The notes under the pieces were generated by a model. That model saw only the letters and a program-made list of their open reading frames with translations, was not told the origin of the DNA and made no database searches. From NCBI GenBank assembly GCA_037033365.1, contig JAZBLS010000001.1, positions 18,937 through 82,936 on the forward strand: a stretch of DNA of 64,000 nt, written 5' to 3'. The translations under genes and the position numbers were made by a program. Of this stretch, positions 29,540 through 45,869 are shown in pieces; position 1 is the stretch's first letter; every line of letters begins with the position of its first letter. This DNA comes from Actinomycetota bacterium. Lineage in GTDB: Bacteria; Actinomycetota; Actinomycetes; Actinomycetales; Microbacteriaceae.

Positions 29540-32257
29540 ATGCTGTCTTCAAAGAGGAAGAACAAGCTGCTGGCACGCACACTCGGCGTCGCGGCGGCCA
29601 CGACGATGCTGGTCGCCGGATCCGTCGTCAGCGCCCAGGCGTACGATCCGTCCCCCGATGTGCTGTATGAACTCGGTTCGCAGGCGTGCCTGAAGGGCAC
29701 AGGCAATTGCGTGATCTATCCGAAGTCGACGCAGTTGCCCAGCGGGCGCCTGCTCGTCGCGTTCGAGAAGTCCACGATCGGCGCCTCCGGCACTGCCGAC
29801 GGGCAGACCGTCCCCGTCATGAAGAGTGATGATTACGGACTGACCTGGCAGCCGCTCGCCGATGTGGCCGCCCCCGCTCACGTCAGCGATGACCCGGCAG
29901 TGGCGCCGTACATCAGCAACTGGACGAACCCGTATCTGTACGTGCTGCCGGAGGATGTCGGGGAGCTCCGGGCCGGGACGGTTCTGCTCGCCACCGTCGT
30001 ATCGGGCGAGGACGAGTACTTCGTGGAGCGCAAGGCGGCGGATCCGAACTGGATCCCCAGCAACGACGGCGATCGTCGCGATCTCGCTCTCGCTCTGTAC
30101 TCGAGCACGGATGACGGTGCGACCTGGAGCTTCGAGAACATCATCGCGAAGGGCGGGTGGCAGGGAGGCAGTGCGGGCAACATCGGCAAGGCGATCGCCT
30201 CGGCCAACACCCATGCGCAAGTAGATCCCCTCTGGGAACCGCATCTCGACGTGCACGACGGCGAGTTGGTCGCGTACTTCTCCGACGAGAACGACTACAC
30301 GGGCTTCGATCAGCAGACCGGCGCCCCCGTTCTCGATCCTGAGAACGACACTGCGGAGGACGCTCACAATCAGATCCTCGTGCACCGCACCTGGAACGGT
30401 GTGTCCGAGGCGTGGAGTGAGAGCGTCGTGGACATCGCCGGGCTGAAGAGTGACATGGGCGGTGGCAAGAGCATCATCGGCGGTGGTCGCCCCGGGATGA
30501 CGACGATCGCCAAGACCACCGATGACAAGTGGCTCATGACCTTCGAGTACTTCGGCGGGGGATCCAACGTGCGCTACAAGATCAGCGACGACCCGCTGGA
30601 CTTCCATTCCGACGGCGATGCGGAAGGGCTGGAGATCACTCAGCTCCCCGCCGCCTCCGGGTCTCGGTCGCTCGCTCGAGGTGGAAGTCCTGTCGTGACA
30701 ACCCTGCCCGATGGGCGTATCGCTTACAACGCAGCGGGGAGCGGGAACGTCTGGATCAACCAGAGCGGTCGCAGCGACGGGGCCTGGACCGAGCTGCAGA
30801 CCACGGTCGGTTCCGGATACAGCCGCACGATGCAGTACGTCGAGGGCACCGGGCGCATGATCCTCTTCCAGGGGGCATGGGGCGGGGCGAGTGCGGGGTC
30901 GGTCGTCCGGCACGCGGAGGTGGACTTCGGGCAGAGCGACGGGGCGTACTACCAGCTCGTGAACAAGGGCACCGGTCAGGTCCTCGGAACCGGGGGGCGT
31001 CAGAACGACGCCAACATCGGGAACAGCGACCGTCCCGACGTGCGCACAGAAGCCGCGAAAGCCGGGGACGCCACTCAGCAATGGCACCTCGCCGTCAAAA
31101 CCGACGGCAACGTGACTCTGCTCAACCGCTCCGGAGGTCGCGCCGCAGCGATCTGGACCGGGAACGCCACGGTCGGCCAGCGCCTCGGGCAGTGGGTGGA
31201 CGAAGGATCCACGGGACTGTGGAAGGTCATCGAGCAGGCGGACGCCACCGTGCGGTTCCAGTCGGTGAAGAACCCGGCGGTGTACCTCACGGCCACAGCG
31301 GACGGCACTGTATCCCTGCAGAATGCCCGCAACGACGGCTCGCAGGACTGGCGACGCGCCATCGACGCACCGACGAGCGCCACCCTCACGCCCGACCAGC
31401 GGAGCGCGGCGCTCGTCGGCCTCGACGGGGTGGAGGCCGGCTCATCCGTGACGCTGAACGCCACGTCTCGGACGCCTGCGGGAGTCGAGCGCAACGCGGG
31501 GGCCATCGGATCCGCGTTCCTCATCGTCGGAGACGGCGCCCCTCAGGACCTCGGGAAGGTCTCGTTCGACGCCGCGGCCACCGCCTCCGTCACCCTGCCG
31601 GGGGGTCTGGACGCCGGTGCCCGCGTGCGGATCGCCGTGCTGTTTGATGGCGCGCCGACACTGTGGGATGAAGCGACGGTGACAGCTCCCGCCGTCGACA
31701 CCACCCGGCCGGTGACGACCCTCGTGTCGCCCACCGCGTCCGGTCCCTTCCAGACCCTCAGCGTGTCGGTGTCAGCGACAGACGAGGGAGGGCTCCGGCG
31801 GATCGTGGCGAACATCTATCGCGACGGCGCACTGGTCAAGAGCACGCAGAGCGCAGCGGGCGGGGCGACGAGTGCCACTCACAACGCGACCGTGACGCTG
31901 CCCGACGGGGACTACGTCGTGAAGTACAACGCCCAGGATCTTGCGGGCAACATCTCGCAGACGCGGACGGCTGCGGTGACGATCGACGCGACGAAGCCCG
32001 CTGCAACCGTCAAGGAGGGTGCAGCGTTCACCGTCGGCGGGCCGACCGCATACGACAAGGTCAGCTTCAAGCTCCATGACGCGGGGAAGATCGACAAAGC
32101 CGTCATCAACGGAGTGGTGAAGGATCTGACCGACAACGCGTGGTCGGATCTGAACAACCTCGCTCCCGGCGTCTTCGGTGCCGTGCGAGGCCAGAACACC
32201 CTCGTCGTCTACGACGTCGCCGGGAACAGCAGCACGCAGGTGTTCACCCTGCGTTGA
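29540..32257 (+). CDS. Secreted modular glycosidase: GH93-like/sialidase-fold beta-propeller + ricin-type lectin + Ig-like domains
   Basis: Signal peptide ending AQA; SDDYGLTW and STDDGATW Asp-boxes; PYLYVLPE..G...AGTVLL, WEPHL, RPGM, FEY as in GH93; YYQLVN..TG and QQW ricin repeats. Confidence 0.75.
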   Translation: MLSSKRKNKLLARTLGVAAATTMLVAGSVVSAQAYDPSPDVLYELGSQACLKGTGNCVIYPKSTQLPSGRLLVAFEKSTIGASGTADGQTVPVMKSDDYGLTWQPLADVAAPAHVSDDPAVAPYISNWTNPYLYVLPEDVGELRAGTVLLATVVSGEDEYFVERKAADPNWIPSNDGDRRDLALALYSSTDDGATWSFENIIAKGGWQGGSAGNIGKAIASANTHAQVDPLWEPHLDVHDGELVAYFSDENDYTGFDQQTGAPVLDPENDTAEDAHNQILVHRTWNGVSEAWSESVVDIAGLKSDMGGGKSIIGGGRPGMTTIAKTTDDKWLMTFEYFGGGSNVRYKISDDPLDFHSDGDAEGLEITQLPAASGSRSLARGGSPVVTTLPDGRIAYNAAGSGNVWINQSGRSDGAWTELQTTVGSGYSRTMQYVEGTGRMILFQGAWGGASAGSVVRHAEVDFGQSDGAYYQLVNKGTGQVLGTGGRQNDANIGNSDRPDVRTEAAKAGDATQQWHLAVKTDGNVTLLNRSGGRAAAIWTGNATVGQRLGQWVDEGSTGLWKVIEQADATVRFQSVKNPAVYLTATADGTVSLQNARNDGSQDWRRAIDAPTSATLTPDQRSAALVGLDGVEAGSSVTLNATSRTPAGVERNAGAIGSAFLIVGDGAPQDLGKVSFDAAATASVTLPGGLDAGARVRIAVLFDGAPTLWDEATVTAPAVDTTRPVTTLVSPTASGPFQTLSVSVSATDEGGLRRIVANIYRDGALVKSTQSAAGGATSATHNATVTLPDGDYVVKYNAQDLAGNISQTRTAAVTIDATKPAATVKEGAAFTVGGPTAYDKVSFKLHDAGKIDKAVINGVVKDLTDNAWSDLNNLAPGVFGAVRGQNTLVVYDVAGNSSTQVFTLR

Positions 32258-32262
32258 TACGC

Positions 32263-32294
32263 ATTCGGGCAGGTGCCCGCGCCCCTGCCCGAAT
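32263..32294 (+). terminator. Hairpin terminator ending the arabinan/galactan locus
   Basis: ATTCGGGCAGG / CCTGCCCGAAT 11-bp stem. Confidence 0.65.
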
Positions 32295-32793
32295 CCGGAT
32301 CAAAGGGACGAGAGGCTGGCCGACGGTCGGCAGGTCCGCACTGCCTCCGGCCGCGCCGATGGCGCTGGTGATCTGCTTGTGTAGCGAAGCCGTCAGAGCC
32401 CCTGCGGTGACGCTGGAGCAGCTCCACGAGAGGGCTTGGAGCAACTCCAGGCTGCGATGTGGGTCGAGGAGAGAGAAAAGCGCAGAACTCTCGCCGTGCG
32501 TGACACCCTTCGGATAGTCCGGATAAGTGTTCTTATCGTGCCCAACGGGCCAGACGTTGAAGTGAGATGGGGCTGAGTTGGTGATCGGTGTTTGAGCAGT
32601 GCTCGAGCGGGATCGCAGGGGTTCCGGCGTCTGCAAAGTAGTGAGCCTGTCCGGTGACCTCGTCGCCGGTGGGCGGTGTCTCACGCTCCGGCGATCTGTC
32701 CCCCGAACGGTCTACAGACGAGTTTGAGGTGGGTACGTAGCGTGGAAGACGGTGGAGCGTCCACCATGAGATAAGACGCGAAGGAGCATCATC

Positions 32794-33468
32794 TTGAAAC
32801 TGAGGTCCGCCGTCATCGGCGTCGTTTCAGCTCTCACCCTGGCGTTGATCGCCTCGCCGGCACACGCATCCGAACCGGAGGTGGTCGCGAATCCCGCGGT
32901 CGCGGTGCAGGCTCCGTCCGGTGGCGAGGTCGCCCCGGACGGATACGAGATCACCGCTGAGGATGAGGCACAGCTGACGGCACTGGTCGCAGGGACAGAC
33001 GGGGACGCGCAGGTCTTCGACGCCGACGCTGCCCGTGATGCCGGTGCGTCGGAGCAAAGCGTCAGTGACTACGCCGCGGTGCTGGTCGGCGCTGGCTGGA
33101 CGATCTCGGGTCAGGCGCCGACTCCGAACCAGGCCTCGGACGCCGAGCTCAACCGAGCGGGAGCAGCGGTCGCTGCGTGCAAGGGCCAAGACGGATACAC
33201 CGGGTTCCACGGGATCTTCTGGCAGTGGGCGCTGAACTCCTGCAATACCGACGTGCTCATCACGCTCGCCGGCGCGGGCCCCGCATCGGTCACTGCCATC
33301 GGAGGCATGCTCGCCGCCGCCGGAGTTCCGCCAGGGGCGATCATCGCTGCGTCCGGAGCGATCATGGCGCTTGGGCTTATCCCGCTTATCGCGTGCAAGA
33401 ACGCGAGTGCAAACAACGCCATCTACGTCAACATCTTCCCCACCGGGGCCGGATGCTGGGGGCAGTGA
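32794..33468 (+). CDS. Secreted hypothetical protein, bacteriocin-precursor-like (signal peptide, acidic pro-region, 4-Cys hydrophobic C-domain)
   Basis: AAGGAG RBS, TTG start, signal ending AHA, Gly/Ala-rich hydrophobic helices, ends CWGQ; function inferred. Confidence 0.7.
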   Translation: MKLRSAVIGVVSALTLALIASPAHASEPEVVANPAVAVQAPSGGEVAPDGYEITAEDEAQLTALVAGTDGDAQVFDADAARDAGASEQSVSDYAAVLVGAGWTISGQAPTPNQASDAELNRAGAAVAACKGQDGYTGFHGIFWQWALNSCNTDVLITLAGAGPASVTAIGGMLAAAGVPPGAIIAASGAIMALGLIPLIACKNASANNAIYVNIFPTGAGCWGQ

Positions 33469-33470
33469 GC

Positions 33471-33701
33471 ATGTCACTTCGCGTGAACCTCGAGACGCCC
33501 GCTACCAGAGCACCCACGATTGCAGTACTGATCAGCTGCGCTCTGGCGATTGCTCTCGTCGTGACTCTGCTGATCTCGCTGCCCGCGATATCCGTTGGTG
33601 CAGCCGGTGACCTCTTGGGGTGGCTGCTGCCTCTCCTGGTTGCCGCGATCGTCGCTATCGTCATCTCCTCGGTGATCCTCACACGGAGAGCGAACCACTA
33701 A
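33471..33701 (+). CDS. Small two-TM membrane protein (candidate immunity protein)
   Basis: ATG 2 bp after upstream stop; 76 aa with two long hydrophobic stretches and basic C-tail. Confidence 0.65.
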   Translation: MSLRVNLETPATRAPTIAVLISCALAIALVVTLLISLPAISVGAAGDLLGWLLPLLVAAIVAIVISSVILTRRANH

Positions 33702-33719
33702 ACGCGCAGACGCGTGGTC

Positions 33720-33758
33720 GAACAGCCGTTCAGGGCGGATAGCTCTGGGCGGCTGTTC
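33720..33758. terminator. Hairpin terminator between convergent genes
   Basis: GAACAGCCGTTCAG / CTGGGCGGCTGTTC stem with two G-U pairs. Confidence 0.65.
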
Positions 33759-33855
33759 GCTGCTCGGATGGTCAGCGGGGTGATGCTAGGGCTGAACGCC
33801 GGTGACCCCGCGGGCAGGGCGTCTACTTCGTCGTAGGCACCGGCTCCTCGAGGGG

Positions 33856-34072: not shown

Positions 34073-34789
34073 CTAGAGCTGGCGGTCGTCGCTCTGAGGT
34101 TCGTCGGAGTCACCGAATCCGAAGCGGTCGACGGTGACGCCCCGCAGCTCGGGGAAGCGGTCCAGGCGTGTGGTCGCGCGGGACTCCGCAGCGGGACGCG
34201 GGGTGGCTGAGGGCGGTGTAGTCGATGAAGGTGTCGGAGCAGGAGCGCGCTGAGGCATCGGCGCGACGACGGGCGCCGCGGTGGATGAGCGCATCATGTG
34301 CGAGACGAACTGGCGCGGCTTGACGATGAGGCGGCCGTTCCACGCCGGGCCGAGGTCGGTCAGATGGTGATCCGAGGAGACGATGACGTCGGCGTCGACG
34401 GCGGGGTCTTTCGCGAGGGCGAGGATGTGGTTGTCCTCGTGGTCTCCGATGCCGTGGTCGCGGACGATCGGGTCGACGATCCCGCCGCCGGTGAGCTGAC
34501 AGGTCTCGACGATGAACTCGAGGAACTTCTGCCGGGTCTGATCGCTCTGGCCGTTCTCGTGCATGACCCGATTCACGTTCCGGAGAATGTGCGGGGACGC
34601 GAAGAGCGCGTAGCGATCGTCGAACGCGAGAGCGAGCGTGTCGGCAGCCGGCGAAGGGGAGGGGATGTCCGCCTCGGTGGGAAGCAGGATGCGACCCTCG
34701 GCGCGACCGATGTAGTCGAGGTAGACGTTGACGTCGAGGACGACGGGGATCTTGCGGGGTCCCGCTGCTGTGCGGGTGCTGTCGCTCAC
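34073..34789 (-). CDS. PIN-domain protein (putative toxin, PIN_3-like) with Pro/Ala-rich C-terminal extension
   Basis: VVLDVNVYLD, DHEDNHILALA, IVSSDHHL acidic PIN catalytic motifs. Confidence 0.8.
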   Translation of the reverse strand: MSDSTRTAAGPRKIPVVLDVNVYLDYIGRAEGRILLPTEADIPSPSPAADTLALAFDDRYALFASPHILRNVNRVMHENGQSDQTRQKFLEFIVETCQLTGGGIVDPIVRDHGIGDHEDNHILALAKDPAVDADVIVSSDHHLTDLGPAWNGRLIVKPRQFVSHMMRSSTAAPVVAPMPQRAPAPTPSSTTPPSATPRPAAESRATTRLDRFPELRGVTVDRFGFGDSDEPQSDDRQL

Positions 34790-35052
34790 GGCACCCGGAG
34801 GTCCTGGATGAGCGCGAGCGTCTCCTCGGTCGTGAAGACCTTGCCGCCACGCTCTGCGAGGGCTTCACCGTGGAGGGTCTCGACGCCGGCGCGGATGTCC
34901 TGGAGACGCTTCAGCCGCAGGCGCTCCTTGAACTCGGTCATGGCGACGCGCAGGAACTCGCTGCGGTTGCCGCCGCCGAACTCCGCGGAGAGCTCGTCGA
35001 GCAGGGGGACGTCGGCCTCTTCGAGGGCGAAGCTGATGGGTCGAGCGGCCAT
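34786..35052 (-). CDS. Ribbon-helix-helix (CopG-like) putative antitoxin
   Basis: ISFAL..DVPLLDELS....NRSEFLRVAM RHH pattern; 4-bp overlap with PIN gene. Confidence 0.75.
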   Translation of the reverse strand: MAARPISFALEEADVPLLDELSAEFGGGNRSEFLRVAMTEFKERLRLKRLQDIRAGVETLHGEALAERGGKVFTTEETLALIQDLRVP

Positions 35053-35204
35053 GGCGGGCCTCCTCACGCGTTAGTAATTGATTATTAAGGGTACTGCGCA
35101 CTTCACCCGAGGGCAATGGTGGAGCGCGATCAGGTGGGGTCTCCTACCAGCCGCCCGCGAGCGCCTCGGCGGGACGGTACTCGTAGCGTTCTTCTCCGCG
35201 TCCT

Positions 35205-40150: not shown

Positions 40151-40372
40151 ATGCCTCTTTTCACCCCCGCGAGCACTAGTCTGCTGGACTCGCTGATCAC
40201 GCCGGCAACACTCGCCGCTCGCCTCGGCACGAAAAGTCTGAGCGAATGGCGCATCACCGGCCGTGGTCCGAAGTTCATCCGCATCGGCCGCAGCCCGCGC
40301 TACCGGCCTGAGGCCGTCGACGAGTGGTTGCTCGCGCAGGAGCACGCGAGCACCTCCGAGGAAGCTGCCTGA
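40151..40372 (+). CDS. xis: Excisionase / AlpA-MerR-like HTH protein
   Basis: LITPATLAARLG...WRITGRGPKFIRIGRSPRYRPEAVDEWL; TGATG overlap with integrase. Confidence 0.85.
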   Translation: MPLFTPASTSLLDSLITPATLAARLGTKSLSEWRITGRGPKFIRIGRSPRYRPEAVDEWLLAQEHASTSEEAA

Positions 40373-41511
40373 TGGGTAGCGCGTACTCGTACGACACGAA
40401 GAACGGCAAGCGCTGGGAAGCGCGTTATCGCAAGCCCGACGGCAAGACCGCGCGTAAGGGTGGCTTTGCGCGCAAGCGGGATGCTGAGGCATACATCACC
40501 TCGGTGGAGTCGGCGAAGCTTCAAGGCGCGTACATCGCACCGGGGGAGTCTCGAGTCACCGTCGGAGAACTGGGTACTTCCTGGCTGACCGCCCACGCGA
40601 TCGCTGTCAAGCCGTCCACCTTCCATAGCGACGAGAGTGCGTGGCGGGTCCACGTCGAGCCGGCCTGGGGGCGACGCCGTGTCGGCACGATCCGGCACAC
40701 GGAGGTCGCGGCGTGGATTGCCGAGTTGAGTTCTGAGCGCTCCGCGACCACCGTGAAGCGGTGCCATGGCGTTCTCGCATCGATCCTTGACGGGGCCGTG
40801 CGCGATCGCCGGCTTCAGTCGAATCCCGCACGCGAGGTGAAGACCCCGCGCAAGGTCCGGAAGCAGAGGGCCTACCTCACGCACCAGCAGGTTGAACGAA
40901 TCGCAACGGCATCTCATTATCCGGATCTCGTGCGGTTCCTCGCCTACACGGGGCTTCGGTGGGGCGAGGCGACGGGCCTCACAGTAGCGAACGTGGATGT
41001 ATCGCGGCGCCGACTGAACATTTCGTCGAACGCCGTCATCGTGAACGGACATGTGATCGTCGGTACGCCGAAGACGCACGAGCGGCGCACCGTCGTCTAT
41101 CCGGCCTTTCTCGATGCTGCGATGATTCATGCGATCACGCTCAAGCGTCCGGATGAGCTGGTCTTCCCTGCCGATACCGGTGGCTACCTCCGGCCGGGCA
41201 ACTCCGTGTCCGGATGGTTCGCTGGAGCGTGCAAGCGCGCCCGACTCGCGGATGCCTCCGATGTTGCCGAGGCCAGGGCTCGGGGCGAGGGGATTCGGGC
41301 GGTTATGCCGCGCGTGACGCCGCACGATCTGCGGCACACTGCTGCATCGCTCGCGATCAGCGCCGGTGCCAACGTCAAGGCGGTTCAGCGCATGCTTGGG
41401 CATGCGAGCGCGGCGATGACGCTCGACACGTACGCAGACCTATTCGATGACGATCTTGACGATGTCGCCGCGGCGCTGGAGGCATCGCGCACGATTGCGC
41501 TTGGACGGTAG
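40372..41511 (+). CDS. int: Tyrosine recombinase / integrase
   Basis: N-terminal arm-binding WEARYR..GGF..K..A; catalytic TGLRWGE, K (PKT), HDLRH, GH, TLDTYADL. Confidence 0.95.
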   Translation: MGSAYSYDTKNGKRWEARYRKPDGKTARKGGFARKRDAEAYITSVESAKLQGAYIAPGESRVTVGELGTSWLTAHAIAVKPSTFHSDESAWRVHVEPAWGRRRVGTIRHTEVAAWIAELSSERSATTVKRCHGVLASILDGAVRDRRLQSNPAREVKTPRKVRKQRAYLTHQQVERIATASHYPDLVRFLAYTGLRWGEATGLTVANVDVSRRRLNISSNAVIVNGHVIVGTPKTHERRTVVYPAFLDAAMIHAITLKRPDELVFPADTGGYLRPGNSVSGWFAGACKRARLADASDVAEARARGEGIRAVMPRVTPHDLRHTAASLAISAGANVKAVQRMLGHASAAMTLDTYADLFDDDLDDVAAALEASRTIALGR

Positions 41512-43345: not shown

Positions 43346-43740
43346 GGACTCGCCACAACTCGGGTAGCGCCCGAAGAGAGAGCACCGAGAACTCCGCGAT
43401 GTGCGTTGGTCGGGGAGCTACCAGCTCGACAACCAGCAAAGCGGGGTGTTCCGACTGCCGAACATCGGCCACACTGATGCACACTTCGTCACCCTCATAG
43501 TCACTTTTCAGGCGAACCTGAACGGCTCTACCTGCTCGGCAATACTCCTGTCGACGGAAGCGCTGACGCGCTTTTTCGTGACGAGCCGACGAAGCCGGGG
43601 GTGATCAAGTAGATGCTTCTCACAGATGACCCATGGCGCGTGCATGGTCGAGCCTGCTCGGATGGGCAGAGGAGTACCGCTATACGGGACTACAGCTGCG
43701 CTGATCGGTACCTACTGCTGCAGTCCGGCCTCGTGGGCGG

Positions 43741-45842: not shown

Positions 45843-45869
45843 TGGGTTCAAATCCCACCGTCACCGCCA
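45843..45869 (+). tRNA. 3' fragment of tRNA-Ser (CGA-type acceptor stem); att core, not an intact gene
   Basis: TGGGTTCAAATCCCACCGTCACCGCCA = T-arm + acceptor 3' strand + G discriminator + CCA; no matching 5' half upstream. Confidence 0.8.

Follow-up and report, generated by a model that had tools for sequence, protein, structure and literature searches.

Two small genes that follow each other closely on the plus strand of a 64,000 nt stretch of a Microbacteriaceae genome (contig JAZBLS010000001.1, positions 18,937 to 82,936, assembly GCA_037033365.1; the whole stretch is referred to here as the window) raise the question of whether they belong together and, if so, what they do. Gene A (32794-33468, stop codon included), defined by the list of open reading frames (ORFs) and by its homologues, encodes a predicted secreted four-cysteine protein of 224 amino acids (aa), and gene B (33471-33701), defined by the ORF list, its substitution pattern and its linkage to A, encodes a membrane protein of 76 aa with two transmembrane (TM) helices. 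A preliminary description of this locus had proposed that A is a bacteriocin and B its immunity protein. As set out below, A and B are a real, undescribed and strictly linked two-gene unit, and a toxin-immunity function is the reading towards which we incline.

A strictly linked two-gene unit

The association of the two genes is evident from the homologous loci. Of the loci gathered from genomes, metagenomes and assemblies, 18 distinct ones had an intact A and enough downstream DNA, and in each of them an ORF of 65-90 aa with two TM helices starts between -26 and +23 nt of the A stop codon, also where the gene caller had missed B, and the A homologues in this set reach down to ~25% identity. 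As a control, none of 77 other genes with a high G+C content at third codon positions, taken from the window and the long loci, has such a neighbour, and no locus with an intact A and without B was found among those examined. Each downstream ORF encodes a pair of hydrophobic helices with a short polar loop and a C-tail that is basic; their sequences can be aligned only inside sub-groups, and a sequence search with B alone returned only four relatives. This survey was at the same time the test by which the preliminary description had proposed to refute the pair, namely a lack of the small downstream gene in homologues, and the pair withstood it; together with the absence of any family match (see below), these counts bear out an undescribed linked unit. 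In the window, the ATG of B lies 2 nt past the TGA of A, and an alternative in-frame start of B at position 33453 overlaps the end of A.

Gene A begins with a TTG codon, 7 nt behind the Shine-Dalgarno sequence GAAGGAG (32780-32786). Its N-terminus, MKLRSAVIGVVSALTLALIASPAHA|SE, has the form of a Sec-type signal peptide (residues 1-26, 32794-32871), in which two basic residues are followed by a 17-residue hydrophobic core and by A-H-A, after which a cut is predicted from the sequence pattern; neither a twin-arginine motif nor a lipobox is present in it. In an alignment of 36 homologues, P22 and A25 are conserved to at least 90%, and 34-35 of the 36 have N-termini resembling signal peptides, all such calls being pattern checks. 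The region that follows (residues 27-128, 32872-33177) is acidic, with 17 acidic against two basic residues and a net charge of -15; across the homologues its median charge is -8.5, and it is acidic in most members. It carries the motif FDxxxAxxxGASxxxxxDYA...GW (residues ~51-128), and F75, A80, G84 and G101 are its conserved positions in the family. The remaining residues, 129-224 (33178-33465), constitute the C-domain, which ends in CWGQ and was delimited by alignment A2, the AlphaFold model and the ratio of nonsynonymous to synonymous substitution rates (dN/dS). It holds the four cysteines, Cys129 (CKG), Cys150 (NSC), Cys201 (IAC) and Cys221 (GCWGQ, directly before the stop codon), and between the second and the third of these lies an Ala/Gly-rich hairpin of 50 residues (151-200, 33244-33393). 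The Sec signal peptide, the acidic stretch of about 100 aa and the four cysteines were thus placed correctly in the preliminary description, as were the 76-aa two-TM gene 2 nt behind A and the strong hairpin that follows it.

Seven positions are invariant among the 36 members (Cys129, Gly131, Ser149, Cys150, Cys201, Cys221 and the terminal Gln224), and Trp222, Asn148, Gln144 and the signal-peptidase site are nearly so. The spacing between Cys150 and Cys201 is 49-54 residues in every aligned member, and the family composition of this segment is 27% Ala, 17% Gly and 31% Val, Leu or Ile. No conserved cleavage site between the N-region and the C-domain was found in the alignment of the 36 homologues.

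An exhaustive HMMER search of 1.84 billion cluster representatives yielded 57 homologous clusters of A, which share one architecture and, bar two short fragments, have lengths of 114-283 aa, and a word-indexed search of 5.8 billion proteins returned eight relatives. The sole name given to any member is 'hypothetical protein [Microbacterium maritypicum]'. No Pfam or NCBIfam family was found for A at E ≤ 0.1 or for the 36 homologues at E ≤ 0.05, B and several of its homologues likewise lacked a significant family match, PHROGs and PADLOC gave no match for A or B, a PDB sequence profile search with A gave spurious low-complexity matches only, and a literature search for a described Microbacterium-type equivalent revealed nothing relevant. 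Known bacteriocin families (lactococcin 972, Bacteriocin_IIc and others) were considered for A and rejected, as no Pfam or NCBIfam profile matched above threshold.

The closest metagenomic relative with good flanks, L009, shows 79% protein identity to A, and its coding DNA is ~78% identical. Against this locus dN/dS is 0.15 for A and 0.09 for B (with synonymous divergences, dS, of ~0.9 and ~1.6, respectively), and both genes are therefore under purifying selection; within A, the ratio is 0.20 for residues 1-128 and 0.08 for the C-domain. By profile search the family was present in one of 401 genomes sampled across the class, and among 101 relatives only the window's own genome held an intact copy, with two partial matches besides, while a scan of 185,579 species genomes with A1, the alignment of closer homologues, gave three loci of the family. 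The A family is therefore a rare accessory element. A divergent sister type was seen in another genome of the same genus (G008, locus L013), where an A-like ORF (~1482-2235) with a signal peptide and the same N-domain motif is followed by a two-TM gene of 65 aa (at 2232); its C-terminal hydrophobic segment is unlike that of A, has four cysteines and ends in ...FSCQ. This suggests a wider superfamily with exchangeable C-domains.

The two helices of B give 19-residue sums of -4.4 and -2.2 kcal/mol on the Hessa scale and are therefore true TM helices. Both the N-end and the C-tail of B are basic, and the protein is predicted to lie with its two ends inside the cell (N-in, C-in). A class II holin identity of B was rejected on context, since no family scored above threshold and no endolysin or phage genes lie nearby; the best holin match, obtained with one B homologue, was the actinobacterial Holin-X (E = 0.036, 14.6 bits versus a cut-off of 28.4).

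The AlphaFold2 model of A, built on the 36-member alignment, is confident over residues 51-224, with a mean predicted local distance difference test score (pLDDT) of 78.5 overall, a figure that includes the disordered first 50 residues, and a predicted template modelling score (pTM) of 0.58. Residues 27-50 are disordered, and residues ~51-128 form a small conserved alpha/beta domain (mean pLDDT 84-95 for residues 51-110, ~66 for 111-120 and 83 for 121-130). The pro-region of the preliminary description is thus acidic as stated, but it is for the most part a conserved and confidently folded domain rather than a loose propeptide, and since a conserved cleavage site is lacking as well, the processing of a 'pre-pro peptide' finds no support. 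In the model of the C-domain, four short helices (149-204) lie between two beta-hairpins (134-147 and 210-223), and Cys150 and Cys201, candidates for disulfide bonding, stand on either side of the helical hairpin at its base. One short member found in nature (P0058/L035) consists of a signal peptide, 17 residues and the C-domain, with the N-domain absent, and its C-domain modelled alone has the same topology as in full A (pTM 0.64); as modelled, the C-domain is an autonomous module, since it folds alike on its own. Foldseek gave no match below E = 0.4 for full A against PDB and BFVD, or for the C-domain alone against PDB, and the predicted fold would be new and absent from the PDB. Unlike the TM helices of B, the hairpin of A is only marginally hydrophobic for membrane insertion, the Hessa-scale energies being +4.3 kcal/mol for its first helix (family median +2.6 kcal/mol) and +0.2 to +0.5 kcal/mol for its second (family median +0.8 kcal/mol).

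Loss of gene A and the function of the pair

What the unit does may be approached through alleles in which A has been lost and B kept. In the metagenomic loci L041 and L042, which were reached through a sequence search with B, ~669 nt corresponding to window positions 32766-33434 are cleanly deleted, taking the ribosome-binding site of A, its start codon and ~214 of its 224 codons, and the leader (32695-32765 of the window) runs directly into the 33 nt that remain of the 3' end of A and a complete B (together 33435-33691). On the L041/L042 branch, dN/dS of B is ~0.18. Rathayibacter toxicus DSM 7488 (L015) has an open B next to an A with a frameshift and no signal peptide, and in a genome of the same genus as ours (L012) A is 5'-truncated and frameshifted and B intact. 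This one-sided pattern, in which the small gene outlasts the large one and the opposite is not seen, is predicted by a toxin-immunity pair and would be unexpected for an obligate structural complex; the B-only allele and the loci with a decayed A fit a role of B as a putative immunity gene.

In our view the unit is, somewhat more probably than not, a self-contained cassette for toxin and immunity that represents a new family and consists of a Sec-exported, membrane-inserting toxin and a membrane immunity protein. Besides the alleles just described, the strict linkage of the two genes, their spread as a rare mobile cassette and the make-up of A (signal peptide, invariant cysteines, marginally hydrophobic hairpin, autonomous C-domain) speak for this reading. 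Export, disulfide formation, membrane insertion, killing and protection are what we infer from the sequences, and their succession may be pictured as follows. A would be exported by Sec and its signal peptide cut after Ala26, whereupon the four invariant cysteines would form two disulfides outside the cell and brace the 50-residue Ala/Gly-rich helical hairpin between the two beta-hairpins. By its marginal hydrophobicity (first segment +4.3 kcal/mol, uncharged turn) the hairpin would get past the translocon and be kept inside a soluble fold, from which it could later enter the membrane of a neighbouring sensitive actinobacterium and dissipate the membrane potential. The acidic N-domain may keep A soluble or bind a receptor, and appears to be dispensable in one natural variant. 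B would be translationally coupled to A, lie N-in/C-in in the producer membrane and neutralize the hairpin within the bilayer. No recurrent exporter, protease, kinase or regulator was found beside A and B in the loci examined, and that no exporter, protease or regulator travels with them is as expected of a Sec-dependent bacteriocin.

Several observations weigh against a toxin-immunity cassette. The unit shows no similarity, in sequence or in fold, to a known toxin or immunity protein, and no polymorphic-toxin delivery module fused to the domain of A was present among the HMMER matches. The C-domain is neutral in charge and not cationic, and it is the most conserved part of A (dN/dS 0.08), whereas many toxin domains diversify. 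As for the alleles, the contigs of L041 and L042 are identical and represent one genotype from at least two assemblies, and B of L015 has an Asp in both helices and may be decaying too. Finally, with +0.2 to +0.5 kcal/mol the second hairpin helix of A is borderline insertable, and for some members (P0025, P0027 and P0039) the values of both hairpin helices are at or below 0 kcal/mol, so that Sec export could leave A anchored in the membrane of its producer.

This last point is central to the main rival, in which the two hydrophobic helices of A, once the signal peptide is cut, would stop transfer and re-insert as a hairpin, so that A would be anchored N-out/C-out and form a non-toxic four-helix complex with B that serves some envelope function, for instance sensing, adhesion or maintenance. 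With 23 and 20 residues the two A segments have lengths fitting for TM helices, the four cysteines would all be extracytoplasmic in that topology, and the strong purifying selection on the C-domain and the stop-start coupling of the genes, which suits a stoichiometric complex, agree with it, as do the insertion energies of the second helix and of the three members just named. However, in most members the energy of the first helix is much too high for insertion, the turn between the helices is essentially without positive charge, and AlphaFold breaks the segment into four short helices of a compact fold. An extremely patchy, mobile distribution with links to insertion sequences (IS) and islands would likewise be surprising for such a complex, and an obligate partner would hardly be expected to persist, promoter included, where A has been cleanly lost, as B does. 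On balance we regard a non-toxic membrane pair as unlikely, though deserving of serious attention.

Two further explanations carry less weight. That the unit is a membrane module of a mobile element, with B as a class II holin-like or exclusion protein and A as a secreted accessory factor in lysis, release or superinfection exclusion rather than a killer of competitors, appears improbable: B does have the layout of a class II holin (two TM helices, N-in/C-in, basic tail), one of its homologues matches Holin-X below threshold (E 0.036) and the unit lies within an integrase-bearing island array, but no holin family reaches threshold, PHROGs and PADLOC are without a match, endolysin, capsid and other phage genes are absent from all examined loci, the unit stands between housekeeping genes in several genomes, and A has no hydrolase-like fold. 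Least probable of all, in our estimate, is a quorum- or pheromone-like signalling pair, with A as the secreted precursor of a signal or pro-peptide and B as the membrane protein that receives or processes it. A secreted precursor with a variable N-terminal stretch and a small membrane protein encoded next door would suit it; yet no kinase, regulator or protease is linked at any examined locus, the conserved part of A is a hydrophobic disulfide domain of ~96 residues and not a short peptide, and B has almost no extracytoplasmic surface.

The cassette and its genomic surroundings

Whatever its function, the unit is a mobile cassette, composed of leader, A, B and hairpin, that occurs in unrelated surroundings. 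DNA similarity between the window and L009 extends from 32694 to 33680 and ends there, and the neighbours elsewhere are unrelated, comprising lepA/hrcA with an rve transposase, arginine-biosynthesis-like genes, IS21 elements and type IV pilus genes. The unit often lies beside IS elements, and in several genomes between housekeeping genes. On the contig of P0010 (JGI 3300047160), a distant A and B pair directly follows a PilM/T2SSE/T2SSF type IV pilus-like set; this link was seen in no other locus and is probably a coincidence.

Upstream of A lies a conserved leader or promoter region (32695-32793, plus strand), as defined by its conservation in L009, L038, L039 and L041. It contains Box 1, TGTCCCCCGAACGGTCTACAGAC (32698-32720), which is followed by a variable spacer of 12 nt and by Box 2 with a TACGTA palindrome (32734-32739), the inverted repeat GGTGGA-GCG-TCCACC (32751-32765) and the two-codon mini-ORF ATG AGA TAA (32766-32774) just before the Shine-Dalgarno sequence, likewise part of Box 2. 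Against L009 (780-880) a single mismatch is found in the last ~62 nt (~98% identity), and conservation is nearly as high in L038 and L039, far above that of the coding DNA; the leader is also kept in the A-deleted allele L041. The leader has no Rfam match and shows neither covariation nor compensatory pairs; it is more likely to be a promoter with an operator, at which some unknown regulator would act, than an RNA element. At the other end, a GC-rich hairpin of 18 bp without a U-tract (33719-33759, plus strand; -45.1 kcal/mol, z = -5.2) folds better than any of 200 shuffled sequences and is likely the terminator closing the unit. Strong hairpins of unrelated sequence are placed equally after B in L009, L039, L041 and L003.

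The preliminary description had also called the pair island cargo, and in a broad sense this is supported, since the cassette lies inside an island array bounded by copies of a tRNA-Ser end. An intact tRNA-Ser(CGA) gene is located upstream of the window (contig positions C1:3278-3368), and exact copies of its final 25 nt are found at C1:11981-12005 and C1:64781-64805 (window 45845-45869), both with a similar flank of ~55 nt. These repeats mark a tandem array with stretches of 8.6 kb and 52.8 kb, and the cassette (C1:51730-52637) lies in the latter, between the second and the third repeat. A tyrosine integrase gene adjoins the tRNA-Ser gene (C1:4225-5232, minus strand), and a second one, 53% identical to it, is found at window positions 40324-41508 (plus strand); the two are oddly opposite in orientation relative to the repeats, which resemble attachment (att) sites. 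The 52.8-kb stretch has a GC content of 0.63-0.67, with a dip to ~0.61-0.63 at C1:54-64 kb (window ~35-45 kb); the value is 0.67-0.69 downstream of the array, and the first 2 kb of the contig have 0.73. A low-GC integrase element of ~12 kb begins just after the terminator of the cassette, which would be within or just outside it. An imperfect direct repeat of 29 nt (33760-33788 and 43654-43682, 9.9 kb apart), the first copy of which starts one base past the terminator hairpin, could be the left end of this element or could be due to chance; considered as an att pair, its 12-nt exact core, CTGCTCGGATGG, is within chance expectation for 15 kb. An empty site was not found in genomes of the same genus, where the query, the 3' end of the upstream gene, matched dispersed Ig-like repeats and not the orthologous locus.

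This upstream gene (29540-32257, plus strand) encodes a secreted protein of 905 aa with a ricin-B lectin domain and sub-threshold BNR/Asp-box and Ig-like matches. DNA like that of the Ig-like region is present at many sites in genomes of the genus, and the gene closes a cluster for a GH42 beta-galactosidase and sugar uptake by an ATP-binding cassette (ABC) system. The gap of 536 nt between it and the cassette contains a GC-rich terminator hairpin at 32263-32294 and a minus-strand ORF of 146 aa (32244-32684) that has protein-like stretches (WPVGHDKNTYPDYPKGVTHGE) and no Pfam match, and is possibly a gene remnant from a rearrangement. Directly downstream of the cassette, a VapBC-like pair is encoded on the minus strand (34073-35067), in which a ribbon-helix-helix antitoxin-like gene (34786-35067) overlaps by 4 nt the gene for a PIN-domain protein of 238 aa (34073-34789) with an unusually long C-terminal extension.

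Relation to known systems

Unmodified bacteriocins that depend on Sec and are followed by an immunity gene are represented by the class IId type, to which enterocin P, hiracin JM79, divergicin A and propionicin T1 belong. A and B resemble these in the Sec signal peptide in place of a double-glycine leader, the absence of a dedicated transporter, the small gene in the immunity position directly after the structural gene and the format of a small mobile cassette. The mature peptides of class IId, however, have 40-70 aa and are mostly cationic, whereas A would have a mature length of ~198 aa unless processed, with two domains and a neutral C-domain; in addition, many class IId immunity proteins are soluble, whereas B has two TM helices, and there is no sequence or Pfam relation. 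As regards the features by which the class is defined, a Sec signal peptide on the structural gene was found in A by the pattern check, an adjacent co-transcribed immunity gene is matched in position only, with one terminator after B, and a mature peptide of <10 kDa stands against the ~198 aa of A unless processed, or the ~96 aa of its C-domain.

PAMP (protease-activated antimicrobial peptide) and propionicin SM1 are treated in a review (PMC5756557). The PAMP precursor of Propionibacterium jensenii (PamA) has a 27-aa signal peptide and ~200 aa in all, and its active C-terminal ~64 aa are freed extracellularly (PMC5756557). The likeness of A to PAMP and propionicin SM1 (both actinobacterial, 27-aa signal peptide, ~200-aa precursor) is by description only; unlike PAMP, the A family has no conserved cleavage site, and no named relative of A, such as PamA, was among the protein-search matches. 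We know of no immunity partner reported for PAMP.

The pore-forming colicins (A, E1, Ia and N) contain an Ala/Gly-rich helical hairpin within a soluble fold, and their small membrane immunity proteins are thought to intercept this hairpin. A and B are similar to them in the predicted hairpin within a soluble fold, the extra N-terminal domain and the small membrane partner, but the colicin domain is a ten-helix bundle of ~200 aa without disulfides that is not Sec-exported, and the immunity proteins have three to four TM helices. A colicin channel domain was rejected for A, as there was no Pfam Colicin match in A or the 36 members and, for either model, no Foldseek match in the PDB below E = 1. 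In contact-dependent inhibition (CDI) systems, membrane proteins of the polymorphic CdiI type give immunity to the ionophore toxins (PMC11630599), and for the Cdz glycine-zipper bacteriocins this part falls to CdzI, a small transmembrane protein (PMC5380434). Common to these and to A and B are a variable N-terminal domain joined to a small helical C-domain that inserts, or in A would insert, into membranes, and an adjacent, fast-diverging membrane immunity or immunity-position gene; in contrast to A, CDI and Cdz toxins belong to Gram-negatives and depend for delivery on CdiA/CdiB or a type I system, and their folds are five-helix bundles or amyloid-like glycine zippers, whereas putative disulfides define the fold of A. 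Glycine-zipper toxins (Cdz-like or TelE-like) were likewise rejected, GxxxGxxxG occurring in four of the 36 A members and only a loose small-xxx-small pattern being common. As judged from sequence, and for PAMP from its description, A and B appear to belong to none of the class IId, colicin, CDI, Cdz and PAMP types. The concept of a secreted toxin with an immunity protein is already known; the A/B family and its predicted fold are new.

A bolder interpretation, to which we give slightly less than even credence, is that A and B represent an unrecognized superfamily of Sec-secreted 'mini-colicins' of Actinobacteria, in which a disulfide-stapled alpha-hairpin would act as the minimal membrane-permeabilizing domain and a two-TM protein would confer immunity. 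Its further elements, put forward just as tentatively, would be an acidic chaperone or receptor-binding domain as carrier, immunity-only 'cheater' alleles and the L013 sister type. Should A and B instead be a non-toxic membrane pair, they would constitute a new small membrane complex of unknown role, and the interest would be more modest. Few protein bacteriocins are known from high-GC Gram-positive bacteria, and understanding of them is poor; since the cassette needs no exporter or maturation genes it lends itself to an easy test in a laboratory host. If the toxin-immunity reading is true, the cassette would provide a new membrane-active scaffold with a matching immunity principle from a family unrelated to known toxins, and its immunity-only allele would be a natural case of toxin loss with retention of immunity in soil or environmental Actinobacteria.

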